Shown: positions 1 to 56,914, counted from the stretch's first letter. The stretch: DNA of 64,000 nucleotides from an uncultured Candidatus Saccharibacteria bacterium (GCA_964565825.1 CAZMGK010000001.1:2052-66051); one strand, 5' to 3'. Numbers and translations: made by a program. The notes: generated from the letters alone by a model not told the origin.

Positions 1-3000
1 GGTGGTGTCACTCGTAATATCATCAGTTGATGATGAACCACTGTCAGATCCTGCGTCCAGATTAGGCACACCCGGAGCTCCTGGTGCAGTTGTATCAACA
101 GTGACTGAGATACTCGGAGATGCGAGTGATTCATTTCCCGCGACATCGGTTGTGGTGATGGTGAGGGTATGTGCACCATCCGCGAGTGCTGATGAGGTAA
201 TACTGTAGAGGGCACCTGCACAGGTAAATGTTCCTACGTTCGTTGCTCCATCATAGAGTGTGATGAGTTCGCCTGTAGTACAAGAACCAGAGAGTGTTGG
301 TGTCGTATCCATAGTGATGTTGTCGGTCGTGATATTAGTATCAGATGCAGTATCCAAATCCGGTGCCGTTACTGGAGTACCAGGGAGTGTGGTGTCGATC
401 GTGACCGAAAGCGTGGTTCCGTCGGCACTCGCATTCCCAGCATTGTCTTCTTGATGAGCCAAGAAGACGTGGACACCATCGGCAAGCGCAGGAGATGCAG
501 TAAGTGTGACCGTACCTGCACTACAGTACCCTGTTGCATAGAGCGTGACACCCTCTTTGAGAACAACCAAATTGGTTCCCAAACACGATACCGTAAAGCT
601 CGGTGTTGTATCTTCAGTAATGTCATCAGTATTGGTTGTTCCTGTGTCTGATGCATTGGTCAGATCAGGCACACCAGGAGCTGATCCAGGAGCAGTGGTA
701 TCAATGGTGACAGAGAGTCCAGCTGATGTCGCTGAGACATTACCTGCGACATCGGTTTGACGTGCGGTCAGTGTGTACGCACCATCAGGCGTGAGTGCTG
801 TTGCGGTCAGTGTAATCGTTCCTCCACCTCCACAGACACCAGAGTCAAGCGTGATGGCACCGTTTCTGAGGTCAACGGTAGAACCAGCGACACAAGAAAT
901 CGTAAAGTCAGGGGTAGTGTCGGTGGTGATATTGTCGGTGGTTGATACTCCGGTACTGTCAGCAGTATCTGAACCTGCATCAAGATCAGGAGTAGAAGGT
1001 GCAGCATCTACTGTAGTGTCGATATCAATAACAACAAATCCAGAGAGTGGAGAGACATTTCCTGCTGGGTCTGTCTGTTTTGCAGTAATCGTGTATGTAC
1101 CATCTGGAGTGAGGGCTGTCGTAATAGTAATCGTTGAAGATGACCCAGCACAGACATCGGTGTAACCTGAAGCACTTCCATCTACCCAGAGTTCGACGGT
1201 AGATCCAGTCACACAAGAAATGGTGAAGGTTGGGGTGTCATCATTGGTTTCATTGTCGGTGGTGTTTCCTGTGTCAGAGGCGACATCAAGATCAGGAGTA
1301 CCTGGAGCAGCATCGGCTGTGGTATCGATGATGATGGCTTTGTTGGCGCCGAGGGATCCGGCAGCGCCTGGAGCTGCGAGTGTGAGTGTTGCATTGTTCG
1401 TCGCAACATCACGAATGGTTCCTCCGTTTAAGGCGAGAGAGTTTGTGGCGAAATAGTCGAGGTCACCACTTGCATCAGCTGCAACGACAGTGTAATTAAA
1501 GGTCAGTGTGTTTGTTCCAGTACCGGAACTGTAGGTTGCATCACGGTCAGTTACACCTGTTTCTAGAGTGAGGAGTGGAGAACCGGTGACGTTGACGACT
1601 TCAGAGAAGACGATTTGTATTGAAATGACCGCACCTGTGGTGTATTCCCCATTGGCAGTACTTGATGTCACACTCGTGACTGTTGGAGAGGTGGTGTCAA
1701 AGGTGTAGGTGTAGGTCGCTGAACTATCACTGTTACCTGATTGATCAGTTGCAGTGTACTCAAATGATCCAGATGAGCTGTTGTTGAACGTAACTGTACA
1801 GGTGAACTGTGTGTTACCGGTAGGAGTAAGTGCTGTACCTGAGGCGACACACGGTGATGTGTTGATGTTGCTTCCGGTGATGACAATATCGCCTGAAACC
1901 AATCCTGAGTTACTGTCGGTCACGGTGAAGACTGCCACGAGTGGGTCAGGACTATTGTAGGTACCGGTTGTTGGAGTGGGTACTCCAAGTGTTGGGTCGG
2001 TACTATCTATGTAAAAGTTTCCACTGTACTGAGTAGCACTGTTTCCAGCACGGTCGTCAACATCGACAGTCAGGGTTCCAGTAGCAGAGACGGTTCCACT
2101 ACAGAATATGGAGACTGATGCAGTGGGTAATGTTGCCACGGTTGGGAATGGATCATAACAGGTAAAGCTGTGAGTTGAGGTTCCTCCAAAGGTCACTGAG
2201 TCAATTCCATTGGCATCAGTGATAGTAAAGGTTGCATTGGTGATAGAGGCTGTTGAGAAGATGGTTGGAGTGGTTGGGGTAATGACTGGTACCACAGTTT
2301 CAATGATGTACGTTTGGGTGGCTTCTGCTCCAGGAATACTTCCTCCTGGGCCTCCACCATCTGGATCTCCTGAACCGTTGACGGTCAGTGTTCCACCAGG
2401 GGTAAGTATTCCATCATCGAGCGTACAGTCGGTGGTGGTTGGATTAGTTCCGACGGCAGGCACACAGGTAATAGCGGATGAGCCTCCTCCGTTGTAGACG
2501 GCTGTGACTGAGTCAATGTATCCAGGTGCGCCCATGAGGACATTGATCGTCGTGTCAGATATTGTTGTATTTGAAATGACCGTTGGTGCGGTGATGGTGA
2601 TGATTGGATAGAATTTGGCTGTCTGTTCACGGATGTTACCGGCTGTATCGTAGGCCCGGAGAATGACGGTATTGAGTGCAGAGGTTGATGCTCCAGTCAT
2701 CGCATACGGAGATGTTTGTGTCGCAAAGCCTCCACCGTTAACATTGAGTTCATAGTGATCAATCGCGATACCGTCGGTTGCTAAAAAGGTGATGGTTGGA
2801 TCAGTGAAATCAAGTGGTGTTGAAGTCAGAGGATCAATGGTGTAGACCGTGATGGTTGGAGCCAAACGGTCAATGATGTAGTTTGGAGAATTAAAGGTGA
2901 CTTGCTTCCCTACTTTGTCTGTTGTAGTGACAGAGATGACGTGGGTTTCTTCGGCATTGTTGGCAGTGGTGATATCGACTGTACAGGTAATAGTCGTATT

Positions 3001-6000
3001 GCCTGTGGTTGGGAGGACTGCTGGAGATGAACAATCAGGAGTCAGGACGCCGTCGATTGAGTCAGTGACTACTATGTATGTGTCAGCTTGGATACCTTGA
3101 CCGGTGGCATTGTCTGCAGTCGTGAAGGTAATAGTTTGAGGACTGGTAGTGGTTAGAAATGTTGCAGTGGTAAATGATCCTGTTGGGACTGTGTTGTCGA
3201 TGATAATAGTCAGTGCGCCACTATCTCCTGATTCATTTCCAGCGAGATCTACCTCACGGACCGTGAGGTTGTTGTGTGTCCCTTCAGACAGGGCTGATGT
3301 GGTACAAGACCAGGCACCAGCTCCGTCTGATGTTGTGGTACAGACAAGTGTTCCGTTATCGTAGACTTTGACTGTCTGTGTGGCACCGGCTCCCGTTCCA
3401 GAGAGTGTTGGTGTGGTGTCAGAAGTGAGATCATCAGTTGATGAGTATCCAGTGTCAGAACCTGCATCGAGGTTTGGGGTACCCGATGGAGCAGAAGGTG
3501 CTGTAGTATCGATGGTGACAGAAAGTGCACCGGATGCCACAGATACATTCCCGGCGACATCTGTTTGTTTCGCAGTGATACTGTAGGCAGCATCTGGAGT
3601 AAGTGCAGTTACGGTCAAGGTGACAGTACTTGCTGCACAGACACCGGTCACACCAGTAGCTACTCCACCGACGAAGAGTTCGACAGTAGATCCGGTGACA
3701 CACGAGAGATCAAAGGTTGGTGTACTATCATTGGTCACATCGTCGTTGGTGAATGTTCCATTGTCGGTTCCAGAGGTCATATCCGGTGCACCTGGAGCAG
3801 CGTCTGCTGTCGTGTCGATGATGATTGCTTTGTTGGCACCAAGAGATCCTGCAGCTCCAGGAGTTGGGAGAGTCAGGTCGGAGTCGATTGTTCCACCGTT
3901 TAAGGCCAGGGAACCTGTACCAGTGTAGTCGAGGTCGGAACTTGTCTCACCTGAGGCGACAGTGTATGTGAAGGTAAGTACTGTGGTACCAGTACCTGAA
4001 GTATAGTTGACGACTGCATCTGTTCCTCCTGTTTCCAGAGTCAGTTGTGGAGTACCGGTGACAGCGACTGGATTAGAGAAAGTAATTTGTATTGAAATGA
4101 CATCGCCTGCATTGTATGAGCCGTCGCCGGTTGATGAGGAGACGTCGGTGACGGTTGTATAGAGGAACCACCCAATAGCGGTACTACTCACGTCAATTGA
4201 GTTTGCTGGCAGAAGAGGAAGTGTGATACCAGAAGAACTATCAAGAGCAGTGTTGTCGGCGATAGAGAGATAATCTCCAGTGAAGGTTGATGCTCCAGTA
4301 AAGGTGATCGTCCGGACTGTCGGAGTATCAGCTGAGGTGATAGCAATGAGGTCATCGGCATCGAGACCATCAAGAACCAGTGAGTTAGCAATAGTGATAT
4401 TACCATTGTCAAAAACAAGTTGACTATTGGTACCATTGTTCGTTGATTCAACCTTAGAGAGTGTGTAGAAAGGAATGGTTGCTGTAGCATCGATGGTGAT
4501 TGCATTAGAGGTAATGGAGACCGTACCGTTGTTGTGTGTAAATGTACCTGCATTAGCAAATGTTGAACCAGAGACAGTGAGTGTCCCAGAGGTTGAAGTC
4601 ATTGCGCCTGAGGCACCAATTGAAAGTGATGGCGTAGACATACTCTGAGCCAATCCAGTGAATGCTCCATCGGTGACGGTCAGTGTATTTGCAACAACGA
4701 GACCACCTCCTAGTTGGAAGGTATCACTGTTACTAGCACTTGCATCATTGATGATGAGGTTGTAGTAGTCGGTGGCACCAAAGTCTTTGATGGTGTGAGT
4801 GGTGGCAGATCCGATTCCGTTACCGTAGTATTCCCAGGTTCCAGAGTTGACGTCGTTGGTGAGAGTGAGGGTGTTACTTCCTTGGAGGCGGACGGTACCG
4901 TCATTACTAAGTGTACCAGAGATAGTAGCATTAAAGCTTGAGAGATCAAGAGTTGAACCAGCATCTATGTCTACAATCGTACCGGTAATATTGAAGTCAT
5001 TGGTCACTACGGTCACCGTTGAATTATTTGTAATCGTAGGGCGGACAGTTCTTGCAACGGAACCAAAGTTCATGTCTTGGGCATCACCTCCGTTAAATGT
5101 TACGGTAAGTTCTGCAGTAAAAGTCATCGTTCCATCAATGATCGCATCTCCCCCAAAACTTGGAGAAAAATTCCCAAATGCTATCGTTCCTCCACTATTT
5201 ACTTGAAGATCTCCTGCATACGTCGATACTGCTCCAGGTGTGAAGGTAGCTCCAGTCATGACAATGAGTTCTTTTGTATCGTTGATGACCGTTGCACCAC
5301 CGGCATCTGGGTAAAGTGTGGTAAGGTCAGCATCTGCATTATTAGCTGTATTGAGTGTCGCAATAGTATGTGCACCACTTTCGAGGATCACTCTATCTTG
5401 GTAAATATCTGTAGTAATGTAGTTCGAAGAACCATTATGTCTAATGAGTGTTGCTCCATCTTCTGTTTCTCCGTCTATGTAGACAGTGACCACAGCAGAA
5501 GCAGTAGGGTTCACATATGACAGAGAGTATGCACCGGTACCACCTGAAGTGGTAGTACATGAGCTTGAGACTCCGTCAACGAGGAGACAGATGGATTTAC
5601 CGTTGGCGATTGGGGTGACTCCTTCGTCGGTGTAGACGCTTCCTGAGATGGTGGAGGCAGCAGCGTCGTAGATGGTGATGCGATGGTTACCAGATTGCGC
5701 AACAAAAAGACGACTGTTTGTAGAATCATACGCGAGATTTTTTGGAGTACTCATACGTGATTGGTTTGTAAGAGCACTAGTATTAGTGAAATTACTTTGC
5801 CCAAGGACATTGATAGCATTTTCTCCATCGGTGATAGTAGCCACATCGTACACAGTGACACGGTGGTTACCAGATTGGGCAACAAAAAGACGATTACCTG
5901 TTGAGTCATAGGCAAGACCTTGTGGACTGTTCATCCCAGCTTGAGTATCAGCCGAAGCAGAGTTTGTAAAATTAGTTTGACCAAGCACAAATGTTGCATT

Positions 6001-8055
6001 TTCTCCGTTAGTAATACCGGTGACATCATAGACTGTGACGCGATGATTGCCGTACTGCGAAACAAAGAGTCTGTTGCCTGTTGCGTCATAAGTAAGACCC
6101 TCTGGACCATTCATCCCAGATTGAGTGTTTCCGGCTCCAGTAGAAAAAAAACTTCCCTGACCAAGTACGAATGTTGCATTTTCTCCATCTGTAATAGCAG
6201 CAACGTCATATACTGTGACACGATGACTACCTGTTTGTCCGACAAAAAGACGATTACCTGTTGAGTCATAGGCAAGACCTGTTGGAGAATTCATTCCGCC
6301 TTGAGTATTAGCAGAGGCGGATGTCGTAAAGAGTGCTTGCCCAAGCACAAATGTTGCATTTTCTCCATCGGTGATAGTAGCCACATCGTACACAGTGACA
6401 CGGTGGTTACCAGATTGGGCAACAAAAAGACGATTACCTGTTGAGTCATAGGCAAGACCTTGTGGACTGTTCATCCCAGCTTGAGTATTTGCCGCTGTAT
6501 TAGACACAAAGTCAGTTTGCCCAAGAACATTATCAGGAACTCTATCAATGAGATTATCGCTCGCATCTAAGTTATACACAAATACTCGATGGTTAGCACT
6601 ATCTGAAACAAACAATCTATGATTAACACTATCTACTTCTTCGTCAACAGGAGTAGAAAAACCAAGTCTGTTCGCAGAATCATGTGACCCACTCTTTGTG
6701 TATGTTGGCACTGGCGCAGATAGATTTGTCCCATCGTACTGACCAAGTGCATCTACTGCATTTTCTCCGTCGGTGATAGTAGTCACATCATAGACAGTGA
6801 GACGACTATTACCATTACCTACTACAAAAAGACGACTATTACTGCTATCATAAGTTAGACCATATGGAGCATTCATCCCTGCTTGAGTGTTTGCCGCAGC
6901 AGTATTGGTGAAGTTACTTTGTCCAAGCACGAATGTTGCATTTTCTCCGTTAGTAATACCGGTGACATCATAGACTGTGACGCGATGATTGCCGTACTGC
7001 GAAACAAAGAGTCTGTTGCCTGTTGCGTCATAAGTAAGACCCTCTGGACCATTCATCCCAGATTGAGTGTTTCCGGCTCCAGTAGAAAAAAAACTTCCCT
7101 GACCAAGTACGAATGTTGCATTTTCTCCATCTGTAATAGCAGCAACGTCATATACTGTGACACGATGACTACCTGTTTGTCCGACAAAAAGACGATTACC
7201 TGTTGAGTCATAGGCAAGACCTGTTGGAGAATTCATTCCGCCTTGAGTATTAGCAGAGGCGGATGTCGTAAAGAGTGCTTGGCCGAGTACATTAATTGCT
7301 GGCTCTCCATCGGTAATTGCCGTGACATCATAGACGATGACGCGATTATTCAAAAAATCGGATACAAAGAGTCTATTATTTATAGAGTCATGCATAATAC
7401 CTCGTGGTGCGCTCATTCCTGATTGAGTGGTAGCAGATGCTGATGTCGTAAAGAGTGCTTGACCAAGGACGTTGATAGCCGGCTCTCCATCAGTGATAGC
7501 AGCGACATCGTAGACCGTGATACGATTGAGGTTTGCAACAAAAAGTCTATTACCTGTTGCGTCGTAAGCGAGACCATATGGAGCACTCATCCCTGCTTGA
7601 GTAACGGAACCACCATTGCTTATAAAGTCTGTTTGACCGAGCACGTTATCAGGAACTCTATCGATCAGGTTATTACTTCCATCTAAGTTATAGACGAGAA
7701 CACGGTTATTATTAACATCTGAAACAAACAATCGATGATTGACTGTATCCATAACTACTCCATACACCTGGTTGAATCCCAGTCTGTTCGGAGAGTCGTT
7801 TGACCCACTTTTTATTATATACCTTGGCACCGGCGCAGATAGATTTGTCCCATCGTACTGCCCCAACAGATCTATCGCATTCGCTCCATTGGAAATAGTT
7901 GCAAATGCAGGTGTTGGTAAAGCAAATGTAATGATGGTAAGTACAAGAATAAGATACGTTTTGTATGATTTCGTATGTGAAAAAATATTCTTTGTAAAAG
8001 ATAAAAAACTATCGACCAGTGTATTACCTTGTGTGTGTTTTGTGTATATAAACAT
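1..8055 (-). CDS. Giant secreted surface protein, partial (C-terminus lies beyond the window start). It has a Sec signal peptide, about 12 NHL-type beta-propeller repeats, then a long run of Ig-like domains (TDxAGNxS motif) and beta-helix-like repeat domains. More than 2680 aa lie in the window.
   Basis: My own reverse-complement translation from the ATG at 8053-8055 (preceded by an in-frame TAA) gives MFIYTKHTQGNTLVDSFLSFTKNIFSHTKSYKTYLILVLTIITFALPTPAFA, then repeated ...GNRLFV.Q.GNHRVTVYDV..ITDGE... (NHL) units. Translation near 3541-3660 gives VTALTPDAAYSITAKQTDVAGNVS in the same frame (low codon coordinate = 1 mod 3) as the start. None of the listed minus-strand ORFs occupies that frame, and all plus-strand ORFs in 1-8000 are short. 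The ORF track omits it because it runs off position 1. Confidence 0.8.
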   Translation of the reverse strand, partial: MFIYTKHTQGNTLVDSFLSFTKNIFSHTKSYKTYLILVLTIITFALPTPAFATISNGANAIDLLGQYDGTNLSAPVPRYIIKSGSNDSPNRLGFNQVYGVVMDTVNHRLFVSDVNNNRVLVYNLDGSNNLIDRVPDNVLGQTDFISNGGSVTQAGMSAPYGLAYDATGNRLFVANLNRITVYDVAAITDGEPAINVLGQALFTTSASATTQSGMSAPRGIMHDSINNRLFVSDFLNNRVIVYDVTAITDGEPAINVLGQALFTTSASANTQGGMNSPTGLAYDSTGNRLFVGQTGSHRVTVYDVAAITDGENATFVLGQGSFFSTGAGNTQSGMNGPEGLTYDATGNRLFVSQYGNHRVTVYDVTGITNGENATFVLGQSNFTNTAAANTQAGMNAPYGLTYDSSNSRLFVVGNGNSRLTVYDVTTITDGENAVDALGQYDGTNLSAPVPTYTKSGSHDSANRLGFSTPVDEEVDSVNHRLFVSDSANHRVFVYNLDASDNLIDRVPDNVLGQTDFVSNTAANTQAGMNSPQGLAYDSTGNRLFVAQSGNHRVTVYDVATITDGENATFVLGQALFTTSASANTQGGMNSPTGLAYDSTGNRLFVGQTGSHRVTVYDVAAITDGENATFVLGQGSFFSTGAGNTQSGMNGPEGLTYDATGNRLFVSQYGNHRVTVYDVTGITNGENATFVLGQTNFTNSASADTQAGMNSPQGLAYDSTGNRLFVAQSGNHRVTVYDVATITDGENAINVLGQSNFTNTSALTNQSRMSTPKNLAYDSTNSRLFVAQSGNHRITIYDAAASTISGSVYTDEGVTPIANGKSICLLVDGVSSSCTTTSGGTGAYSLSYVNPTASAVVTVYIDGETEDGATLIRHNGSSNYITTDIYQDRVILESGAHTIATLNTANNADADLTTLYPDAGGATVINDTKELIVMTGATFTPGAVSTYAGDLQVNSGGTIAFGNFSPSFGGDAIIDGTMTFTAELTVTFNGGDAQDMNFGSVARTVRPTITNNSTVTVVTNDFNITGTIVDIDAGSTLDLSSFNATISGTLSNDGTVRLQGSNTLTLTNDVNSGTWEYYGNGIGSATTHTIKDFGATDYYNLIINDASASNSDTFQLGGGLVVANTLTVTDGAFTGLAQSMSTPSLSIGASGAMTSTSGTLTVSGSTFANAGTFTHNNGTVSITSNAITIDATATIPFYTLSKVESTNNGTNSQLVFDNGNITIANSLVLDGLDADDLIAITSADTPTVRTITFTGASTFTGDYLSIADNTALDSSSGITLPLLPANSIDVSSTAIGWFLYTTVTDVSSSTGDGSYNAGDVISIQITFSNPVAVTGTPQLTLETGGTDAVVNYTSGTGTTVLTFTYTVASGETSSDLDYTGTGSLALNGGTIDSDLTLPTPGAAGSLGANKAIIIDTTADAAPGAPDMTSGTDNGTFTNDDVTNDSTPTFDLSCVTGSTVELFVGGVATGVTGVCAASTVTLTVTALTPDAAYSITAKQTDVAGNVSVASGALSVTIDTTAPSAPSGTPNLDAGSDTGYSSTDDLTSDTTPTLSGTGAGATQTVKVYDNGTLVCTTTSDGAGAWSCTTSALSEGTHNNLTVREVDLAGNESGDSGALTIIIDNTVPTGSFTTATFLTTTSPQTITFTTADNATGQGIQADTYIVVTDSIDGVLTPDCSSPAVLPTTGNTTITCTVDITTANNAEETHVISVTTTDKVGKQVTFNSPNYIIDRLAPTITVYTIDPLTSTPLDFTDPTITFLATDGIAIDHYELNVNGGGFATQTSPYAMTGASTSALNTVILRAYDTAGNIREQTAKFYPIITITAPTVISNTTISDTTINVLMGAPGYIDSVTAVYNGGGSSAITCVPAVGTNPTTTDCTLDDGILTPGGTLTVNGSGDPDGGGPGGSIPGAEATQTYIIETVVPVITPTTPTIFSTASITNATFTITDANGIDSVTFGGTSTHSFTCYDPFPTVATLPTASVSIFCSGTVSATGTLTVDVDDRAGNSATQYSGNFYIDSTDPTLGVPTPTTGTYNSPDPLVAVFTVTDSNSGLVSGDIVITGSNINTSPCVASGTALTPTGNTQFTCTVTFNNSSSGSFEYTATDQSGNSDSSATYTYTFDTTSPTVTSVTSSTANGEYTTGAVISIQIVFSEVVNVTGSPLLTLETGVTDRDATYSSGTGTNTLTFNYTVVAADASGDLDYFATNSLALNGGTIRDVATNNATLTLAAPGAAGSLGANKAIIIDTTADAAPGTPDLDVASDTGNTTDNETNDDTPTFTISCVTGSTVELWVDGSASGYTDVCAGSSSTITITTALTPDGTYTITAKQTDPAGNVSPLSGFVVIDIDTTVDAAPSTPDLDAGSDTADSTGVSTTDNITTDTTPDFTISCVAGSTVDLRNGAITLDSGVCGGGGTITLTATALTPDGAYTLTARQTDVAGNVSATSAGLSVTIDTTAPGSAPGVPDLTNASDTGTTNTDDITEDTTPSFTVSCLGTNLVVLKEGVTLYATGYCSAGTVTLTASPALADGVHVFLAHQEDNAGNASADGTTLSVTIDTTLPGTPVTAPDLDTASDTNITTDNITMDTTPTLSGSCTTGELITLYDGATNVGTFTCAGALYSITSSALADGAHTLTITTTDVAGNESLASPSISVTVDTTAPGAPGVPNLDAGSDSGSSSTDDITSDTT

Positions 8056-8107
8056 ACGTATATTTTATCATGGTACATGAGGTAAAATCTATTTCTGTCT
8101 AGTGTTT

Positions 8108-8138
8108 GCTGTGAAAAACTCAACGAGTTTTTCACAGC
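8108..8138. promoter_or_regulatory. Perfect inverted repeat GCTGTGAAAAACTC-aac-GAGTTTTTCACAGC, about 55-85 nt upstream of the giant-protein start; candidate operator or 5'-UTR hairpin.
   Basis: 14-nt perfect arms read from the sequence. No U-tract follows on either strand, so it is unlikely to be a terminator. Confidence 0.35.
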
Positions 8139-8705
8139 CTGTATGCTCTCTCACCTCCCTCTTGCAAAGAGGTCATTTTATCTACACTTTGGGCGTATGT
8201 AAAGCATGTAGATGTTTCTCATACCTAGACAGATAGAGGGTAAACACAGAATACACAGCTGTGTGTTACACGAATACTCATCTCCATAGGTACTCTACGG
8301 TGTATCTGTGTCCTCTGTAGCTTTGTTCTTGATATATGATATATATCAACGTATATATCATCTTGTACTTCATGATACGTCTCTTGATGAAGAGAAAAGT
8401 CAATCGAATTAAAAAATATAATCACACAACAAAAAAACACTCACTCATACATCAGAAAAATACTCTCTTGTTTCACATACCCCCTACTCTAAAAATCACC
8501 ATCATCACCGTCTCTTCACCTCTACAGCAAAAAACGCACGTTTCCACTTGTAGATTTTTTATACATCATATATACTCATACCATGTCAAATACAGATCGT
8601 GTACTTTCAGAACTTTTTGACCTCTTTTTCTGTCACTATGATGCACTGATACCGAGACTCAACGTTGAAAAAATTTTGTAAATGACTTCATGAAATAGAT
8701 TTTTA

Positions 8706-8930
8706 TTTCCAGAAACGACCTTCCAAAGCTAAGGTCCTTCCTGAAAAAAAATCGTTTAGATATTTTCCGTAAACGATTTCAGGGAGTTGAGGTCCTTCCT
8801 GATAAAAAATAAGTTGAACGACTTCCAAAAGCTGATGTTCTTCTCGAAAAAAAGACTTCAAAACATTCTCGGAAGCGACCTTCCAAAGCTAAGGTCCTTC
8901 CCGACTTAGGTGCTTCTCGAAAAATTCTAC
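8706..8930. repeat. Four degenerate tandem repeats of about 50-56 bp (consensus ...AACGACCTTCCAAAGCTAAGGTCCTTCCTGAAAAAAA...) in the 1-kb divergent intergenic region.
   Basis: CGACCTTCCAAAGCTAAGGTCCTTCC occurs at about 8717 and 8877. Diverged copies sit at about 8771 (GATTTCAGGGAGTTGAGGTCCTTCCTGATAAAAAA) and about 8822. Each unit ends in an A-run. Confidence 0.6.
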
Positions 8931-8979
8931 ATACATACACATTGTTTTTAAAAAAAGACCTGCTATACTTTATATATGG

Positions 8980-9038
8980 TTCCCGTTAGAAGTCAGCTAC
9001 TTCATATATCCACACAAGAAAAAAACAAACACGGGAAC
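8980..9038. other. Hairpin-prone element containing CCCGTTAGAAGTCAG, the reverse complement of CTGACTTCTAACGGG that recurs at 56865-56879 and within the leader modules. The stem GTTCCCG...CGGGAAC encloses about 45 nt.
   Basis: Direct string matches and complementarity read from the sequence. Confidence 0.4.
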
Positions 9039-9057
9039 TAAATAATATTTATAAGCA

Positions 9058-9100
9058 CTAATTAAGGACGGAAGTCTCAAGACTTCCTACTTCTAACGGG
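9058..9100 (+). promoter_or_regulatory. Conserved 43-nt leader module, CTAATTAAGGAC-GGAAGTC-tcaa-GACTTCC-TACTTCTAACGGG, ending exactly at the ATG.
   Basis: A near-identical module sits upstream of gatC (56763-56804, minus strand) and a diverged copy upstream of the 46297 gene. The hairpin stem shows compensatory changes: GGAAGTC/GACTTCC here versus GGAAATC/GATTTCC in the other two copies. Confidence 0.6.
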
Positions 9101-9892
9101 ATGGAAACAGAAAAAAATAATCAAGAAGTTCATCACACAAATGAACACTCACCTATTACAAGTAACGGAGAGAAAAATTCATTATCAGTAGGTTCTGCAA
9201 TTATTATTGGAGCAGTAATCATAGCGCTCGCAGTTGTCGGATCAAAGAAATTTTCTAGCTCAAGCATGCGTGATTCATCTGAATCAGTTCTTTCAACCCT
9301 CGATATTAGTGAGAAAAAATTCAAAGCTTGTTACGAAGCAAAAACACCTGAAGCAAAAATCCGCGCTCATATGGCAAGCGCAGAAAAAGCAACCAAACAT
9401 ATTCCAGAAGATCAAGGACGTGGTACACCATACAGTATTGCAATCAACCAGAAGACTGGTATGAAAATAGAAATTGCTGGAGCGTACCCGACTGAAGCAG
9501 TCACCAGTATCATAGATAGTATGTTTGCGGGTACAGCAAAAAGTCAGACTGAAATTGACATTGATCCAGTTACCGGCGAAGACCACTATTTTGGTTCAAA
9601 AGATGCAGAAATTGTAATCATAGAATACTCTGATTTGGAATGTCCATACTGTTCACGTTTTCACACAACGATGCAAGATGTAGTAGAGTCGTATGGTGGA
9701 AAAGTAGCATGGGTCTACAGACACCTCCCTCTTGAGCAACTTCACCCTAATGCATTTGATAAAGCAATCTCTTCGGAATGTATCTATGACATAGGAGGAG
9801 ATGTAAAATTCTGGGAATACATTGATTTACTCTTTAAAAAAAATGAGCCAAAGAAACCAGTGTTTGACCCGATAACAGGAGAGACGAAATAG
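9101..9892 (+). CDS. Membrane-anchored thioredoxin-fold thiol:disulfide oxidoreductase (DsbA/Thioredoxin_4-like) with a CPYC active site. It appears to lack the usual C-terminal half of DsbA-type proteins.
   Basis: N-terminal TM helix (IIIGAVIIALAVVG). Motif DLECPYCSRFH followed by VAWVYRHLPL...HPNA. The ORF stops at 9892 and a terminator hairpin follows at 9931. Confidence 0.6.
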   Translation: METEKNNQEVHHTNEHSPITSNGEKNSLSVGSAIIIGAVIIALAVVGSKKFSSSSMRDSSESVLSTLDISEKKFKACYEAKTPEAKIRAHMASAEKATKHIPEDQGRGTPYSIAINQKTGMKIEIAGAYPTEAVTSIIDSMFAGTAKSQTEIDIDPVTGEDHYFGSKDAEIVIIEYSDLECPYCSRFHTTMQDVVESYGGKVAWVYRHLPLEQLHPNAFDKAISSECIYDIGGDVKFWEYIDLLFKKNEPKKPVFDPITGETK

Positions 9893-43751: not shown

Positions 43752-44432
43752 TTAAGGATTACATTCTGTTTCTTGTTGTTGCAGATGATACGTTGTGCTT
43801 TGCCCAGAAAAACCAGTCGAATCGATACAAAAAGCAATATTAAAGTCTGTTTTTAATGGAGAAGAAACACCCCAGAGCGTTCCCGTAGGATGATTGTCAT
43901 GGCACACGGATAAAAGTCGATACCCAGCTGTTTCATAATCTGTTGAATACCATGGAAATGGATTATTGGAAAGTCTCGCTGCTTCTGCCAAAAAAGCTTC
44001 AACTTCAACACTATCGCACATATAGCTGTAGCTATTATTTTCTTGGTAATAAATATATGATTGTTTTTTAATTCCATCAAGAGCGGCTTTGATGGCTGCG
44101 TCACGTGCCCTATCTCGAGCATTCGTTAAACGAGGAATAATAATACCTGCAAGAATACCAATAATTGCAATCACAATGAGGAGCTCGATGAGGGTAAACC
44201 CCGACACCAATCGCAACAGACGCTGACGCCCTTTTTTGGTATGATGAGTCATCAGACGAGTAAGAAAACCGAATGGGTTATTTTTTAGGATTGGTGTGGG
44301 GGTAAACCCCGACATCAATCGCAACAGACGCTGACGCCCTTTTTTGGTATGATGAGTCATCAGACGAGTAAGAAAACCGAATGGGTTATTTTTTAGGATT
44401 GGTGTGGGGGTAAACCCCGACACCAATTTCAT
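43752..44432 (-). CDS. Type IV pilin with tandem 36-aa N-terminal modules (MKLVSG|FTPTPILKNNPFGFLTRLMTHHTKKGRQRLLRL x2) before the authentic VSG|FTLIELLIVIAIIG. The ORF track extends it to 44639; the ATG at 44432 (MKLVSG) is the more likely start.
   Basis: Prepilin motif SGFTLIELLIVIAIIGILAG. The modules are homologous to those of 40583..41413 and have the same 108-bp period. Confidence 0.75.
   Translation of the reverse strand: MKLVSGFTPTPILKNNPFGFLTRLMTHHTKKGRQRLLRLMSGFTPTPILKNNPFGFLTRLMTHHTKKGRQRLLRLVSGFTLIELLIVIAIIGILAGIIIPRLTNARDRARDAAIKAALDGIKKQSYIYYQENNSYSYMCDSVEVEAFLAEAARLSNNPFPWYSTDYETAGYRLLSVCHDNHPTGTLWGVSSPLKTDFNIAFCIDSTGFSGQSTTYHLQQQETECNP
44187..44432 (-). repeat. Three copies, at a 108-bp period, of GGGTAAACCCCGACACCAAT... 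carrying the GGTGTGGGGG-taaa-CCCCGACACC palindrome.
   Basis: Copies begin at 44192, 44300 and 44408. Units are near-identical (one has ACATC for ACACC). Confidence 0.85.
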
Positions 44433-44576
44433 ATACTTTTTTTTAAGGAGAGCACTTTTTTGTTTCAAAAAATGTTTTTTTGTACTAAAAACTTTTTGTT
44501 TTTTCTTTTTTAATCTTTTAACAATACTTCTATCTTTGTTAAAAATTTTGGTGTTTGAATTTGTATGTGGGGTTTT

Positions 44577-44611
44577 TGTTGGGGGAGGCCTACGGCCTCC
44601 GCCAACAAACA
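44577..44611. promoter_or_regulatory. Imperfect 16-nt-arm palindrome TTTGTTGGGGGAGGCC-tac-GGCCTCCGCCAACAAA in the divergent pilin/RNase II-R region; candidate operator.
   Basis: Single C/G mismatch in the G/C run, the same kind of mismatch as in the GGTGTGGGGG/CCCCGACACC palindrome. Confidence 0.35.
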
Positions 44612-44722
44612 CCCCCAAAAACACTACCGAAAAACACATACCAAGAGCACCCTCTTTATGCTACACTATAGTCGTGATTAAACCTCAAAAAACAGAAGCC
44701 GAAATACTCGAACGTCGAGAAT

Positions 44723-46224
44723 ACAAAAAAGAAATGCGCATGATTGCCAGAAATCCTGACCTAATTACCTTCCCTGCACATATCAAAGAAGAGCTCGCGA
44801 ATATTCCTGAAACAATTACAGGTGCTGAAATAAAAAATCGCCGTGATTTTCGACATATTGCAACATGTACTATTGACCCAGATGACGCAAAAGATTTTGA
44901 CGATGCGATTTCGTTTCTTGTGCTTCCAGATGGAACAAAAGAAATTGGTATCCACATCGCGGATGTTGGACACTACGTACAGGAAAAAACAAAACTTGAT
45001 AAAGAAGCTTACAAACGTGGGACGTCTATCTACCTCACCAACACGGTTGTGCCGATGTTGCCAGAAAAAATATCAAACGACGTTTGTAGTCTCAAGGAAA
45101 AAGTCGACAGACTTACGTTCTCTGTCGTGGTTATATTCGACAAGAAAGATACCATCATCCACACATGGTGCGGAAAAGGTATTATTCATTCAAATAAACG
45201 ATTCACTTATAGCGGGGCACAAAAGGTAATAGACGACAAAGCTGGAATCTATGCCGAGGAACTTTTAGAACTCAAACGTATTTCAGGTACTCTTATGAAA
45301 AAACGTGAACGAGACGGAGCGCTCTTCCTCGAAGACACAGAAATTCGATTTACCTATGACCAGGACGGCAACCCAATTGGGGTACAACAAAAAGTCCGCC
45401 TCGATACGATGAAACTCGTCGAAGAATTTATGCTTTTAGCAAACAGGACAGTTGCAGAACAATTTACCAAAGATGAGCCATTTGTCTATCGTATCCACGA
45501 CAACCCTGACCGAGAAAAACTCAATGCACTCCATGACCACGGACGAGAATACGGTATCGAGATTCCAAAAAAACTCGACAACCATACACTCAATCACTTG
45601 ATACAGAGTATAGAGAATGAAGACTTGCGTTCACATTTCTCAAAAATAATTATGCGCAGTATGGCGAAAGCAGTCTATTCAAGTAACAACATCGGACACT
45701 ATGGATTGGCGTTCGATCAGTATACACATTTCACTTCCCCTATCAGACGGTATCCAGACCTCATTGCACACAGACTGCTTTTAGATAAACTCCAACATAA
45801 ACAAAAACCTATTGATGTACGTGAATTTGAAAAAAAGCTCATCTACCTGTCGACCTGTGAAAGAAAAGCTCAAGACATCGAACGTGCAAGCACCAAAGAC
45901 ATGCAGATAAAATACATGGGAAATTTTCTAGGTATGGAACGTACTGGTGTTGTCACCGGCCTCACTGAAATCGGTATATACGTTTCTGACAAAGAATCAC
46001 TCTCGGAAGGTTTCATCCACCAAAGAACTCTCGGCCGAGACTGGAAATGGAATGACAAACAACTCTTCTGGAAAAACGAAAAAATTGGTAAAATAAAAAT
46101 GGGAGATCATATTACATTCAAAGTTGAGAAAGTAAATTTTGACAAAGGTTTTATCGATTATAGTTTATGCAATCCCGTTAGAGATACACAAACTACTATC
46201 TCAATGAGACACAGTAAAAAATAG
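44723..46224 (+). CDS. rnr: RNase II/R-family 3'-5' exoribonuclease (RNB domain + C-terminal S1). The ORF track starts it at 44404, but the first 100 codons overlap pilin repeat DNA; the likely start is the ATG at 44723 or the GTG at 44673.
   Basis: RNB motifs (IDPDDAKDFDDAISF, HFTSPIRRYPDLIAHR) plus an S1-like C-terminus. Confidence 0.8.
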
Positions 46225-46253
46225 ACAAAAATGTATGAAATATTATCAAGACA

Positions 46254-46296
46254 TTAATAATAAAACGGAAATCTTTGATTTCCTGTCGTAAGCGGG
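46254..46296 (+). promoter_or_regulatory. Third, diverged copy of the conserved leader module (…ACGGAAATC-tttg-GATTTCC-TGTCGTAAGCGGG-ATG).
   Basis: The 19-nt CGGAAATCTTTGATTTCCT is identical to the gatC copy, and the ATG spacing is the same. Confidence 0.55.
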
Positions 46297-48657
46297 ATGC
46301 AAGAAAAATTAGAACTTTTTAAAATACATTGGAATGATTTTCGTGCTTTTTTAGCAGAACATCGCAGAAGCATGATACTATGGATATTTGCATGTGTCTG
46401 TCTTTTTGTCATTGCTCCCTTCGTCTATTCATATATTTCTTTTAATCAAAAATTTGGTGATAGAAACACATCGCAATCAGAGCACATAGAAACACCGACT
46501 CATACACTCGAACAGATTCAAGAAATTATCGAACCAGAACGTATTGTATTTGAAAAAATTGCAGAAGAGTCTTTTCTTCCTCCACAAAAAGGAAAAATGA
46601 TTCGTGTCAATTTGTACACCATGACACTCAAGCAATACGAAAATGGGACGCTTGTTGGTTCAAAAAAGATACTCAGTAAAGCAGTTAAAGGAAGCCTCTG
46701 GGAAATCCCGAGTGGAAGTTATCCTATTTCTAACTCTAACGAAGACTACTACTCGACAAATGTTGGAGCGTGGATGCCGTATGCTATTAACTTATTCGGA
46801 AATTATTTTATTCACGGAGAGCCACACGACGCCAAAGGACGAACACTTCCCCTCTCTTTCAAAAATGGAGGTATCAGACTCAACACAACAGATGCACGAG
46901 CGTTGTTTGATTGGACAGACCCAGATACGCGTATCTCGGTCTATAGTGACAGCACCCTTGTACCTGCTCCTATTTCAGCAGAATCAGTCTATGTATCTGC
47001 CGATGGAACCATTAAACCTAAAGTCAGTGCAGAAGCATACATTGTTGCGGACATAGATACAGGTGAAATTATTCTCCAAAAAGACAAAGACGTACCGTAC
47101 GCTATTGCATCTACGACAAAACTCATGACTGCTGTGGTATCAGTAGAAAATCAAAATCAATTTGATTATGCAACAGTATCAAAAAAGGCAATCGACACGT
47201 ATGGTTTCTCTGGATATGTGCCAGGAGAAAAAATAGAACTTTCAAATTTACTCAATCCGCTTCTACTTCCCTCTTCAAATGACGCAGCAGAAATTATTGC
47301 CGAGCATTTTAACCGGACCCAGTTTCTTGCAAAAATGAATGGAAAAGCAACAGAGCTTGGTATGGATAACACAACGTTTGAAGATGCAAGCGGACTTTCA
47401 GCGAATAATAAAGCATCAGCCCACGATCTCTTCAGACTCGCGCAATATATTACTCATGAAAAACCATTTATTTGGGATATTACAAAAAGACGTGTGTACA
47501 GTGCTCAAGGTCACACTGCAAAAAATATCAGTCAATTTTTAAATGATAAAAATCTCATTGGATCAAAACCTGGCTTTACGTATGAAGCAAAACAATCAAA
47601 CGTCGGAGTCTGGGAATTACAACTCTCTGAGATCACCAAACGAAAAATTGCAATCATCATCCTGCGGTCAAATGACCGGTATCGTGACACACAAAATATA
47701 CTCTCCTATCTTAAAAAACAAGTTATCTACGGCCGTGATGGAAGGTTTGTTATTTCTGGGCCAAAAAACAAAGACAAAGAACTGAGTATGCGTTTTACCG
47801 GTGACATTATGCTTGATCGCGGTGTGCGATATTCTGTCAATAAAAATTTTAATGGTGACTACACAAAACTTTTCACCAATCTTGATTCGTACAAAGATGC
47901 TGATATTTTCTTTGCTAATTTAGAAGGACCAGTGTCTGATAAAGGAAAGGATTCAAAAAACATGTACTCATTTCGTATGGAACCACGCATACTGCCAATG
48001 CTTCAAGATGTAGGTCTCGATATTGTCTCATTTGCAAATAACCATGTTGGAGACTGGGGCCTCGAAGCATTTTCTGATTCACTCTCTCAATTAGAACAAG
48101 CAAACATTGCGTATACGGGGGCTGGGATGAAGTTTGAAGATGCGCGTGAACCAACAATTATTGAACGTAAAAATATGAAGATCGGATTTCTTGGTTTTTC
48201 AGATGTTGGGCCGTCATGGTTACACAACACAGAAACAGAAGGCTACGGTATCAACAAACTAGACACAGACACCTTTAATGAACTTGTCTCCAGCGCAACA
48301 AAAAAAGTCGACGTTCTTATCGTGTCAGTCCATTGGGGTGCAGAATATTCCACCACTACTGAAAGGCAACGAGAATTTGCACATCGAGCAATAGATAGTG
48401 GTGCAAAAATTGTCGTCGGTCACCATCCTCATGTCGTCCAACCACTAGAAGTCTACAAAGGAGGTCTTATCGCGTATAGCCTAGGGAATTTTATTTTCGA
48501 TCAAGGATTCTCAAAAGATGTCATGCGTGGGCTGACCCTTGAAGTTCTGATTGATACAGATGAAAAGTACATTAAACAATACAACACCTATATCACAGAA
48601 CAGAACGCGTACTTTGTCCCAGGTGCCCCTTTTAAAGAAAGAGTACTCGAGGAATAA
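46297..48657 (+). CDS. Tri-domain cell-envelope fusion protein: a YkuD (L,D-transpeptidase)-like domain whose catalytic Cys appears replaced (…KNGGIRL…), a serine-type D-Ala-D-Ala carboxypeptidase (S11/DacA-like, SxxK = ASTTKLMT), and a CapA/PgsA-like metallophosphatase domain.
   Basis: N-terminal TM. HG...NGGIRL in place of the usual SHGC(I/V)R. AYIVADIDTGEIILQKDKDVPYAIASTTKLMT. CapA motifs DIFFANLEGP, FANNHVGDWG, VHWGAEY, VVGHHPHVVQP. Confidence 0.8.
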   Translation: MQEKLELFKIHWNDFRAFLAEHRRSMILWIFACVCLFVIAPFVYSYISFNQKFGDRNTSQSEHIETPTHTLEQIQEIIEPERIVFEKIAEESFLPPQKGKMIRVNLYTMTLKQYENGTLVGSKKILSKAVKGSLWEIPSGSYPISNSNEDYYSTNVGAWMPYAINLFGNYFIHGEPHDAKGRTLPLSFKNGGIRLNTTDARALFDWTDPDTRISVYSDSTLVPAPISAESVYVSADGTIKPKVSAEAYIVADIDTGEIILQKDKDVPYAIASTTKLMTAVVSVENQNQFDYATVSKKAIDTYGFSGYVPGEKIELSNLLNPLLLPSSNDAAEIIAEHFNRTQFLAKMNGKATELGMDNTTFEDASGLSANNKASAHDLFRLAQYITHEKPFIWDITKRRVYSAQGHTAKNISQFLNDKNLIGSKPGFTYEAKQSNVGVWELQLSEITKRKIAIIILRSNDRYRDTQNILSYLKKQVIYGRDGRFVISGPKNKDKELSMRFTGDIMLDRGVRYSVNKNFNGDYTKLFTNLDSYKDADIFFANLEGPVSDKGKDSKNMYSFRMEPRILPMLQDVGLDIVSFANNHVGDWGLEAFSDSLSQLEQANIAYTGAGMKFEDAREPTIIERKNMKIGFLGFSDVGPSWLHNTETEGYGINKLDTDTFNELVSSATKKVDVLIVSVHWGAEYSTTTERQREFAHRAIDSGAKIVVGHHPHVVQPLEVYKGGLIAYSLGNFIFDQGFSKDVMRGLTLEVLIDTDEKYIKQYNTYITEQNAYFVPGAPFKERVLEE

Positions 48658-52095: not shown

Positions 52096-52794
52096 TTAGT
52101 CCATCCACTTTTTTTGTTCAATCGCCAACTGTGCTGCATTTTGTTCAGCCTCTTGTTTAGATTTACCTTTACCAGAAGCGATAAGGTCAGACCCAAAGAA
52201 AATTCCGACACTAAACTTTTTATCATGATCTGGTCCTGATTCGTTGAGAACTTTATATGATGGAGTGACGTGATAGACCTCTTGAGCTTTTTCTTGCACT
52301 AGAGATTTTGCATCGCGCCAGAGCTTGTGTTTGATGATCTGTTCGATCTTAGGAAAGAGATATTTTTCAATAAAAAGCTTGCATGGTTCGTAGCCTTGAT
52401 CGAGGTACAATGCACCGATAAATGATTCAAACGTATTTGCGAGGATGTGCATTCGGGCTTTACCGATATCTTTACTTTCACCTTTTGAGAGAAGGAGATA
52501 TTCGTTCATACCGAGATCTTGTGCAACACCACCGATCACTTGTGTATTCACCAGTGATGACCGAAATGCCGTCAATTCACCTTCTGGAGAATTTGGAAAA
52601 TTCATGTATAAGTGAGTGGTAACAATGAGTTCAAGAACTGCATCACCCAAAAATTCGAGTCGTTCATTGTGTCCATGTTTGAGATTACTATTCTCATTCA
52701 AGTAAGAACGATGTACAAATGCTTGGGTCAGTAAGTTTTTATCTTTAAAATGGATATTCAGTTTTTCTTCAAATGGGGTGAAATTAGCTTGCAT
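52096..52794 (-). CDS. rnc: Ribonuclease III
   Basis: NERLEFLGDAVLELIV catalytic signature plus a C-terminal dsRBD. Confidence 0.92.
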   Translation of the reverse strand: MQANFTPFEEKLNIHFKDKNLLTQAFVHRSYLNENSNLKHGHNERLEFLGDAVLELIVTTHLYMNFPNSPEGELTAFRSSLVNTQVIGGVAQDLGMNEYLLLSKGESKDIGKARMHILANTFESFIGALYLDQGYEPCKLFIEKYLFPKIEQIIKHKLWRDAKSLVQEKAQEVYHVTPSYKVLNESGPDHDKKFSVGIFFGSDLIASGKGKSKQEAEQNAAQLAIEQKKWMD

Positions 52795-56482: not shown

Positions 56483-56762
56483 TGTTGATAATTTTATTTA
56501 CTTCTAAATAGCCATTTTTTTCTTTCGGGAAATTTGCTTTGATGCGAGATTGCGTATCAAAATTACTATCATGTGCAACATCTTCTCGGGTAACATTTTG
56601 CACAACAGGTGTTACTTTTTCACCAGTTTCAATGTGCGCATTTTCTATTTGTTTAATATAGCCCAAAATAGTATTCATATCATTGGACAATGCCCCTGCT
56701 TCTTCGTCTGTGACAGAAAGCCGTGCAAGCCCTGCGAGTTTTTGTATGTCTTCGGTGGTCAT
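56475..56762 (-). CDS. gatC: Glutamyl-tRNA(Gln) amidotransferase subunit C
   Basis: 95 aa, ...LAGLARLSVTDEEA...; overlaps the gatA start. Confidence 0.85.
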   Translation of the reverse strand: MTTEDIQKLAGLARLSVTDEEAGALSNDMNTILGYIKQIENAHIETGEKVTPVVQNVTREDVAHDSNFDTQSRIKANFPKEKNGYLEVNKIINND

Positions 56763-56804
56763 CCCGTTAGAAGTAGGAAATCAAAGATTTCCGTCCTTAA
56801 TTAG
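56763..56804 (-). promoter_or_regulatory. Conserved leader module (minus strand: CTAATTAAGGAC-GGAAATC-tttg-GATTTCC-TACTTCTAACGGG-ATG) directly upstream of gatC.
   Basis: 41/43 identity with 9058-9100. The two differences in the stem are compensatory (G->A paired with C->T). Confidence 0.6.
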
Positions 56805-56840
56805 CTGGTAATAAAATAATAAACTTTTGTGCATGATGTA

Positions 56841-56879
56841 CCCGTTATATACTAGTAACCTATCTGACTTCTAACGGGA
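56841..56879 (+). other. Hairpin CCCGTTA-(24 nt)-TAACGGG containing CTGACTTCTAACGGG; related to 8980-8996 and to the leader modules.
   Basis: Direct sequence matches. Confidence 0.4.
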
Positions 56880-56914
56880 GTCATATCAATAATCTACCAC
56901 AAAATAGACAATAT

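Follow-up and report, generated by a model that had tools for sequence, protein, structure and literature searches.

A probable family of miniature transposons resident on start codons across Patescibacteria

Introduction

Why would the same small hairpin stand directly before the start codons of three unrelated genes? The question is raised by a 64,000-nt stretch of DNA from an uncultured Candidatus Saccharibacteria bacterium (CAZMGK010000001.1:2052-66051; hereafter the window, meaning the whole stretch that was analysed), in which a 43-nt module abuts the starts of a dsbA-like gene, of gatC and of a fusion gene. The original prediction, made from the sequence alone, saw this module as fitting a shared cis-regulatory element. 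We found instead that a longer non-coding element of 118-125 nt is present, of which the 43-nt "leader" forms just the right-hand (3') third. We consider it highly probable (about 0.85) that this element represents a family of MITEs (miniature inverted-repeat transposable elements) that reside on start codons, and regenerate them, across Patescibacteria.

Results

The three copies of the module were all present as claimed. At positions 9058-9100 the sequence reads CTAATTAAGGAC-GGAAGTC-TCAA-GACTTCC-T-ACTTCTAACGGG, and the ATG of the dsbA-like gene follows directly at 9101 (copy 1). A near-identical module occupies positions 56803-56763 on the minus strand and is followed by the gatC ATG at 56762-56760 (copy 2), and a third, diverged module lies upstream of the plus-strand gene at 46297 (copy 3). 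Pfam searches assigned the three downstream genes to a DsbA/thioredoxin-like protein, to GatC and to an L,D-transpeptidase / D-Ala-D-Ala carboxypeptidase / PGA_cap fusion. The likeness among the three copies is far beyond chance, and the compensatory stem change, GGAAGTC/GACTTCC versus GGAAATC/GATTTCC, is truly two-sided. Two details of the prediction needed amendment. The 4-nt loop holds for copy 1, whereas copies 2 and 3 have TTT (3 nt), so that their modules are 1 base shorter. A Shine-Dalgarno (SD) sequence is indeed lacking, but this is a trait of the whole genome and not of the module.

Three further features lie outside the 43 nt: an inverted arm about 100 nt upstream, a second ATG just before that arm, and direct repeats flanking the whole unit. 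The matching inverted arms lie at 8982-8993, 56878-56867 and 46174-46185. Exact matches to the 12-mer ACTTCTAACGGG in the window number four, and all of them belong to two inverted pairs. The unit is bounded by terminal inverted repeats about 100 nt apart, in which (T)CCCGTTAGAAGT is the reverse complement of ACTTCTAACGGG(A). These match at 13/13 bp in copies 1 and 2; those of copy 3 have diverged and still pair. Each unit combines a 13-bp closing helix with an inner hairpin, the folding z scores against shuffled sequences being -5.3, -2.9 and -4.2 for copies 1, 2 and 3, respectively. Naming the upstream ATG as ATG1 and the one on the downstream gene as ATG2, the layout of the flanking duplications is ATGGT|T...A|TGGA in copy 1, ATGAC|T...A|TGAC in copy 2 and ATGCAA|T...A|TGCAA in copy 3. 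The element has no coding capacity: every frame from ATG1 stops within it, and the resulting peptides are not conserved beyond the PVRS encoded by the arm.

We used a covariance model trained on 21 family members, among them the three window copies, whose scores (Table 1) therefore partly reflect training. Readings of the same three loci on the opposite strand reached 31.5 and 29.2 bits, and the rest of the 64 kb held no further match above 12.3 bits. No Rfam family matched anywhere in the window at gathering score; over the element at E<=10, the best hit had E=0.26 and 19.8 bits against a gathering score of 81.9, and nothing was credible. No tRNA-like genes were found.

Comparison with sister genomes showed that the sites can be empty. 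Homologues of the dsbA-like gene (70, 68 and 55% identity) share a dsbA - rpoD - dnaG neighbourhood. At this site, sisters L200, L202 and L203 have TATAAT or TATACT, a spacer of 6-8 nt and then ATGGAA(A/C)A, with the element absent, where the window reads cTATACTttatatATGG[TT CCCG...CGGG ATGG]AAACAG. Homologues of the fusion protein (79, 76 and 74% identity) lie on syntenic stretches of 22 kb whose genes run rnr - fusion gene ... rnc - nusB - rpmF - x - gatA - gatC. The gatC site of sister L205 is empty and reads ...ggTAGATTattgatATGAATACCGAAGAC (also given as ggTAGATTattgatATGAATACC and ...TAGATTattgatATGAATACC...), as against ...ggTAGATTattgatATGAC[T...A TGAC]CACCGAAGAC in the window, and the roughly 70 nt that precede gatC in L205 are nearly identical to the window. 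At the fusion gene, L205 has ...agtctATGCAAGAAAAAC and the window ...agtttATGCAA[T...A TGCAA]GAAAAAT; in L205-L207, rnr either overlaps the ATG of the fusion gene by 16 nt or ends 3-5 nt short of it, leaving no space for an element. The covariance model detected no copy in 81 kb of sister DNA (best score 18.7 bits, E=0.16).

All three window copies are insertions, absent at the same sites of syntenic sisters. Because all three sites are empty in the sister genomes, ATG1 is the ancestral start, and ATG2 consists of the last base of the element plus the duplicated TG. The assembly that contains L205 does have an element, L090, but this belongs to another subfamily and lies at a different gene, and the family is therefore polymorphic within the Saccharibacteria-labelled clade. 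In sum, the elements are non-coding, shorter than 300 bp and dispersed in multiple copies, with inverted repeats, duplications and presence/absence polymorphism; inverted repeats, duplications, empty sites and multiple copies together constitute the defining signature of a MITE.

To follow the family beyond the window, we scanned one genome per species for the pattern CCCGTTAGAAG, 78-108 nt, CTTCTAACGGG, that is, for two exact 11-nt arms with neither an ATG nor a hairpin specified. This yielded at least 118 stretches with at least 124 elements, and all family counts below are among the matches listed. The family termini are 12-13-bp repeats, Y-CCCGTTAGAAG(Y) ... (R)CTTCTAACGGG-R, around a variable centre, with a subterminal hairpin beside the right end. 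Labels were Patescibacteria, also known as the candidate phyla radiation (CPR), for 98 of the 118 stretches, "bacterium" for 15 and something else for five short contigs. The Patescibacteria labels included Saccharibacteria, Kaiser-, Nealson-, Nomura-, Jorgensen-, Zambryski- and Staskawiczbacteria and Paceibacterota. The five other contigs (L019, L028, L066, L084 and L106, labelled Syntrophobacter, Planctomycetota, deltaproteobacterium, Bdellovibrionales and Gammaproteobacteria, respectively) carry the same 11-nt arms; they are mostly short, several of their elements have GC-rich interiors, and in none does an element directly abut a start codon. Either these contigs are mis-binned or the family reaches beyond Patescibacteria. 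Copy number is three in the 64 kb of the window, on both strands, and several metagenome-assembled genomes (MAGs) have two to five copies on the listed stretches.

The duplications seen in the window recur across the family. The 4-bp flanking repeat was perfect in 81 of the 124 elements, compared with 9.2 expected and a maximum of 19 when partners were shuffled, and this signal was confined to a 6-nt register. The duplicated sequences were varied (TGAA/TTCA in 34 elements, TGGA/TCCA in 10, and also TTTA, TCAA, TATG, TATA and others), so they are not a requirement of gene starts. The terminal Y/R pair was Watson-Crick in 121/124. Since elements ending in C...G typically read ATGAAC|CCCG...CGGG|GTGAAA, the purine is the element's own and only TG-N-A is duplicated.

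Several subfamilies share the arms and differ in their interiors. The window type has its hairpin 1 nt from the right arm; in 21 members compared, there are two positions at each of which eight sequences have both partners changed relative to the commonest pair, and G-U pairs are few. In another subfamily a 4-nt bulge is followed by 7 further bp of closing helix, which are either GATCGCG/CGCGATC or GACCGCG/CGCGGTC. Sense and antisense strands did not differ significantly in minimum free energy (Wilcoxon p=0.14), and for all three window copies the antisense strand was the more stable. Among stem mismatches, a hand count gave a small excess of G-U over A-C (about 10 to 3), which is only suggestive. 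The predicted selection on the hairpin stands in one part, as pairing is kept by two-sided changes across genomes; selection on RNA finds no support. Because sense and antisense fold about equally well, the two-sided changes do not show RNA function. Covariation alone is no proof of selection on RNA, and palindromic transposon ends would give the same pattern.

We then determined where the elements lie relative to genes, calling as a start codon any ATG, GTG or TTG with at least 50 open codons after it. The right arm directly abuts a start codon in 86 of the 124 elements (69%), and in eight more the start lies 2-6 nt further on (for example, at TATG duplications), giving 94/124 (76%) within 0-6 nt. 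An upstream start is retained 5, 6 or 7 nt before the arm in 73 of these 86, which matches duplications of 3, 4 and 5 bp. Many insertions away from start codons duplicate TTGAC-like or TATA-like boxes, with the rest of the promoter following (L086, L101, L106 and L072). Orientation relative to the gene is nearly fixed at 47:1, the family motifs lying beside the gene-proximal arm in 47 elements and beside the distal arm in one. Oriented insertion and selection are both candidate causes; the bias may arise partly because a reversed hairpin with a T-rich tract resembles a terminator, as in copy 3.

A -10-like TAnnnT box precedes ATG1 by 4-9 nt in 31 of the 73 elements with a retained start, with a peak at 6 nt, compared with 15/86 in a shifted control. 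In the window, the boxes and spacers are TATACT+6, TAGATT+6 and GATTAT+5, so that at all three sites the -10 box stands 5-6 nt from ATG1, as in leaderless starts. Across the window, SD sequences are almost absent upstream of 43 gene starts, and TATAAT, TATACT or TATAGT stands 6-8 nt before the start codon of several genes (at 33902, 34953, 42870, 49661, 58868 and others), which suggests widespread leaderless mRNAs in this Saccharibacteria-like organism.

The genes downstream are unrelated. Among the proteins downstream of the 86 abutting elements we counted 91 Pfam families, with at most three members each (SSB and DUF167 were commonest, with three each). The genes include ssb, topA, tig, parB, alaS, pgk, tpiA, a pyrophosphatase, pilB, pilC and others. 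A regulon, for which the original prediction proposed a test, is thus not formed by these targets. They are unrelated housekeeping genes, and the element must permit good expression. At 80 GatA-related metagenome loci (at most 57% identity), none (0/80) had paired arms upstream of gatC.

Four individual loci deserve mention. At L070:6614-6650, a degenerate, older right arm (TTCTCTAACGGG) stands directly before the ATG1 of an intact element (6504-6613, in minus-strand orientation), and one start codon appears to have been struck twice. Loci L012:1040-1064 and L031:4788-4812, from different phyla, have nearly the same 5' flank (TATAATATAGA, a few nt, ACTTGT) and no upstream ATG; this type may be a longer element variant with its own promoter. 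A Logan contig of the same organism as the window (L001:1-26) begins 26 nt upstream of gatC, within the element, which fits a repeat that breaks the assembly graph.

Discussion

We propose that a transposase acting in trans inserts the element by a staggered cut, which would duplicate 3-5 bp, mostly 4 bp, at T-N-N-A sites. The great majority of surviving copies lie where a start codon's TG-N-A has been duplicated. There, ATG1 is left upstream with its promoter, and the terminal purine of the element together with the duplicated TG forms a new in-frame ATG or GTG (ATG2) on the gene, leaving the protein unchanged.

A number of observations weigh against a start-codon-resident MITE. At the 118 listed loci, which are up to 8 kb long and supply about 0.9 Mb of flanking DNA, no transposase gene was found between arms spaced 0.14-8 kb apart. 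Start-codon residence of 70-76% is far above what a T-N-N-A target and simple survival would produce, and either targeting or selection may lie behind it. Ascertainment is limited: the contigs come from MAGs, some of them possibly mis-binned, and a match was listed only if both of its 11-nt arms were exact. With ATG2 covered by a GC-rich helix of 13 bp, the translation of essential genes should be blocked. ATG1 is conserved no better than the neighbouring duplicated bases and is missing in two elements (L012 and L031). A crude consensus scan of the three window copies found no sigma-70-like internal promoter in the sense direction. Termination-reinitiation by an upstream open reading frame (uORF) whose stop lies beside ATG2 was rejected as a route of expression, the frames (27/17/14) showing no significant bias.

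As for a parent transposon, solo arms with at most one mismatch are about as many as chance predicts, roughly 15 by our estimate. The IS1380 family is a possible parent: in ISfinder, its ends start with CC and its direct repeats measure 4-5 bp. The (Y)CCCG... ends and 3-5-bp duplications described here would fit these traits, but no transposase gene with such ends was found in the flanks scanned.

Could the module nevertheless be a shared cis-regulatory leader, along the lines of the original prediction? Such an RNA might act as a translational operator, as a hairpin bound by a protein or as a riboregulator, and it would put gatC under common control with the dsbA-like gene and the cell-wall fusion gene, as one regulon. 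Copies placed exactly on start codons, two-sided hairpin changes and a nearly fixed orientation relative to the gene would all suit such a leader, and a mobile element could have been co-opted later as a regulator. We regard this as very unlikely. The three sites are empty in sisters and bear target-site duplications at inverted repeats, the GatA-related loci lack the element before gatC, the diversity of downstream Pfam families does not resemble a regulon, the sense strand has no folding advantage, and Rfam returned no match. The prediction had named a generic dispersed repeat, lying away from start codons and free of covariation, as the outcome that would speak against regulation. What we observed was different, since the covariation and the link to start codons proved general in related genomes; the unit that shows both is an insertion, and it is on this insertion evidence that a shared operator or protein-binding site fails. 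A DNA rearrangement site, whether an invertible promoter segment (inverton), a site akin to the attC of integrons or a RAYT-mobilised REPIN, is the least probable of all the alternatives considered here. Inverted repeats of 12-13 bp about 100 bp apart would be in keeping with one, GTTAGAA/TTCTAAC faintly resembles attC core sites, and the size and the palindromic doublet recall REPINs. An inverton should occur in both states, yet orientation is biased at 47:1. The copies are dispersed on both strands and form no cassette array, and GTT/AAC lies on the outer side of the arm, opposite to attC. The flanking 4-bp duplications speak against any such site, as RAYT/IS200-type transposition, inversion and attC recombination are not known to make 4-bp duplications. 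Arm polarity, orientation bias and duplications led us to reject the attC, inverton and REPIN candidates.

The start-codon-resident MITE raises the question of how genes are expressed past the closing helix, and it is in this question of how the rebuilt AUG is used that the prediction's novel translation-initiation signal lives on. The first two bases of ATG2 are paired with the left arm in a 13-14-bp helix, in a region with neither an SD sequence nor an AU-rich context. Reading from ATG1 crosses the left arm as M-x-P-V-R-S, and all 58 uORFs stop before ATG2; those in the window stop 60-93 nt before it. As a guess, we favour routes that take the helix away or open it. RNase III might cut a helix of about 20 bp, formed by stacking with the hairpin or by its extension, so that the mRNA would be left leaderless or with a short leader; the window contains rnc, at 52096-52794. 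Alternatively, translation begun at ATG1, or coming to its end on the upstream gene, might run through the left arm and thereby expose ATG2. In copy 3, it is the rnr frame and not a uORF that passes through the arm.

Two other routes were examined and set aside. An outward internal promoter is rejected as a general route, since -10-like hexamers are common in the AT-rich interior in both orientations, with no orientation-specific peak, and the consensus scan found no sense-direction promoter in the three window copies; such a promoter is possible for some subfamilies. In L005, L023, L035, L048, L053, L063 and L113, conserved TTGAAATTAGC...TATATAAAGACAG stands just inside the right arm (3' 45 nt), and the conserved TTGAAA...TATAAA near the 3' end of this subfamily resembles a -35/-10 pair aimed at the downstream gene. 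An SD sequence within the element is rejected as well: AAGGA/AAGGAG occurs about 31-35 nt before ATG2 in several subfamilies, which is too far, is missing from copy 3, and SD sequences are unused in the window genome.

Two readings go further and give the helix a function in RNA. It is conceivable, if unlikely, that the element is a self-neutralising parasite of SD-less or leaderless starts, aimed at promoter-proximal DNA (from the -35 box to +5) at or close to where transcription and translation begin, with its conserved helix of about 20 bp signalling either processing or shunting. The element would then be excised by RNase III or some other nuclease, which would leave a 5'-terminal AUG or GUG, or an initiating 70S ribosome at AUG1 would cross the helix base and pass to AUG2. 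If so, it would be a bacterial counterpart of mitochondrial tRNA punctuation, of the caulimovirus shunt or of T4 gene 60 hopping, carried on a mobile element. Very unlikely, and slightly less probable than a regulatory leader, is an intron-like or bypass element proper, in which the 120 nt between the two short repeats would be removed from the mRNA, or the ribosome would move from AUG1 to AUG2, so that a leaderless start is restored. It would be compatible with a MITE at the DNA level and would account for short repeats with a start codon on either side of a stable helix whose base joins AUG1 and AUG2, for an upstream copy that stays ATG even where the downstream one is GTG, and for essential genes that tolerate the insertion. 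Against it, Rfam gave no match to a ribozyme or intron family, the interior varies too much to hold a conserved catalytic fold, the second codons often differ between the two sides (AAT versus AAA), and some elements lack AUG1.

Among known systems, the Correia elements of Neisseria (CREE/NEMIS) are alike in being non-coding, about 100-160 bp long, bounded by terminal inverted repeats and a short duplication, dispersed beside genes, and co-transcribed with the neighbouring gene, their repeats forming a long RNA hairpin. RNase III cuts the Correia hairpins, in which promoter elements can also lie; the elements have 26-bp inverted repeats and duplicate TA. The sequences are unrelated, the arms here measure 12-13 bp (CCCGTTAGAAGT) compared with about 26 bp, and the duplication is 3-5 bp at T-N-N-A instead of TA. 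Moreover, about three-quarters of the listed copies here sit on a start codon rebuilt by the terminal purine, and the family spans many Patescibacteria phyla, whereas Correia elements belong to one genus. Rickettsia palindromic elements (RPEs) are likewise small, palindromic and selfish, lie at or in genes, even essential ones, and have their insertion made harmless. RPEs lie in frame and are translated within the host protein; here, by contrast, frames from ATG1 end before ATG2, the element stays outside the protein, and the N-terminus is restored by the duplication.

Translational bypass elements (the T4 gene 60 gap and the "byp" elements of Magnusiomyces mitochondria, the latter being mobile) also lie between matching short sequences and have a hairpin directly after the take-off site. 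Here, by contrast, the repeat is a 3-5-bp transposon duplication with a start codon and not a pair of matched sense codons, and a normal start lies downstream; the bypass-like trait in the sequence amounts to matching UG-N-A repeats around a hairpin and nothing more. REPINs, the REP doublets associated with RAYTs, resemble the family as palindromic doublets of about 100 nt that form hairpins and occur in many dispersed copies. They are not known to have target-site duplications and mostly occupy extragenic 3' regions, whereas the elements described here have duplications and sit at gene starts. Full-text literature searches found no description, whether under the arm sequences, under MITEs of Patescibacteria or Saccharibacteria, or under transposable elements combined with leaderless starts. 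MITEs are well known; a start-codon-resident family across Patescibacteria phyla is apparently undescribed.

The family has practical and biological consequences. The element splits promoters that are often leaderless from essential genes (gatCAB, ssb, topA, alaS, tig and pgk), and it shows that mobile DNA is active in these reduced genomes, or was so recently. Such elements will go on being mistaken for conserved 5' leaders by gene callers and motif hunters, and they break assemblies and leave decoy ATGs and short uORFs. They also pose a question about translation in the CPR, namely how an AUG half buried in a 13-bp helix is used without an SD sequence. Processing to a leaderless mRNA, or ribosome transfer, would, if true, be a new way to tolerate a transposon.

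Features of the three copies and neighbouring sequence

Table 1. Positions of the three element copies and their flanking features in the window
Feature	Position	Strand	Remarks
Copy 1, -10-like box TATACT	8964..8969	+	leaderless-type ancestral promoter of the dsbA-like gene, 6 nt before ATG1; from sequence
Copy 1, ATG1, ancestral start of the dsbA-like gene	8976..8978	+	empty sites in L200, L202 and L203
Copy 1, uORF of 21 codons (MVPVRSQ...), runs into the element	ATG 8976, stop TAA 9039-9041	+	translated by hand
Copy 1, 5' target-site duplication TGGT	8977..8980	+	one mismatch to TGGA
Copy 1, element, 121 nt	8981..9101	+	13-bp closing helix; 105.8 bits; absent from sisters
Copy 1, left inverted repeat T+CCCGTTAGAAGT	8981-8993	+	followed by variable A-rich centre
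Copy 1, conserved CTAATTAAGGAC	9058-9069	+	
Copy 1, inner hairpin	9070-9087	+	
Copy 1, right inverted repeat ACTTCTAACGGG+A	9089-9101	+	
Copy 1, 3' duplication TGGA	9102..9105	+	with terminal A (9101) forms ATG2, working start of the dsbA-like gene (9101-9892)
Copy 2, -10-like box TAGATT	56891..56896	-	6 nt before gatC ATG1; box and spacer identical in L205
Copy 2, ATG1 (56884-56882) and 5' duplication TGAC (56883-56880)	56880..56884	-	
Copy 2, uORF from ATG1, 10 codons (MTPVRSQIGY)		-	
Copy 2, element, 118 nt	56762..56879	-	95.6 bits; empty site in L205 and L207
Copy 2, left repeat; inner hairpin; right repeat	56879-56867; 56792-56776; 56774-56762	-	
Copy 2, 3' duplication TGAC	56758..56761	-	with terminal A (56762) forms the gatC start codon
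Copy 3, ATG1 (46167-46169) and 5' 5-bp duplication TGCAA (46168-46172)	46167..46172	+	inside the 3' end of rnr
Copy 3, element, 125 nt, diverged arms	46173..46297	+	66.4 bits; no room for the element in sisters
Copy 3, left repeat; inner hairpin; right repeat	46173-46185; 46267-46283; 46285-46297	+	
Copy 3, 3' duplication TGCAA	46298..46302	+	with terminal A (46297) forms the start of the fusion gene (46297-48657)

The insertion of copy 3 touches the end of the upstream gene. The frame of rnr, the RNase R/II gene at 44404-46224, now continues through the left arm of copy 3 to a stop at 46222-46224. The last 17 rnr codons (46174-46224, ...CNPVRDTQTTISMRHSKK*) are supplied by the left part of the element, and in sister L205 the protein ends ...LCKKN*, overlapping the ATG of the following gene.

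To the left of copy 1, positions 1-8064 of the window hold, on the minus strand, a single ORF that is cut by the left edge and has at least 2688 codons, with a GC content of 47% compared with 39% elsewhere and 180/360-nt tandem repeats at 5789-6529. An apparent ORF-free region of 9 kb upstream of copy 1 proved to be an artefact, because the ORF listing skips this giant gene that leaves the window. At the corresponding position, sister L203 has a gene for a 2537-aa SpvB/FG-GAP/RHS protein and other sisters a glycosyltransferase gene. The giant gene is separated from the dsbA-like ATG1 by an AT-rich stretch of about 900 nt (8065-8975), in which there is no long ORF and which includes a 23-nt tandem repeat at 8422-8465.

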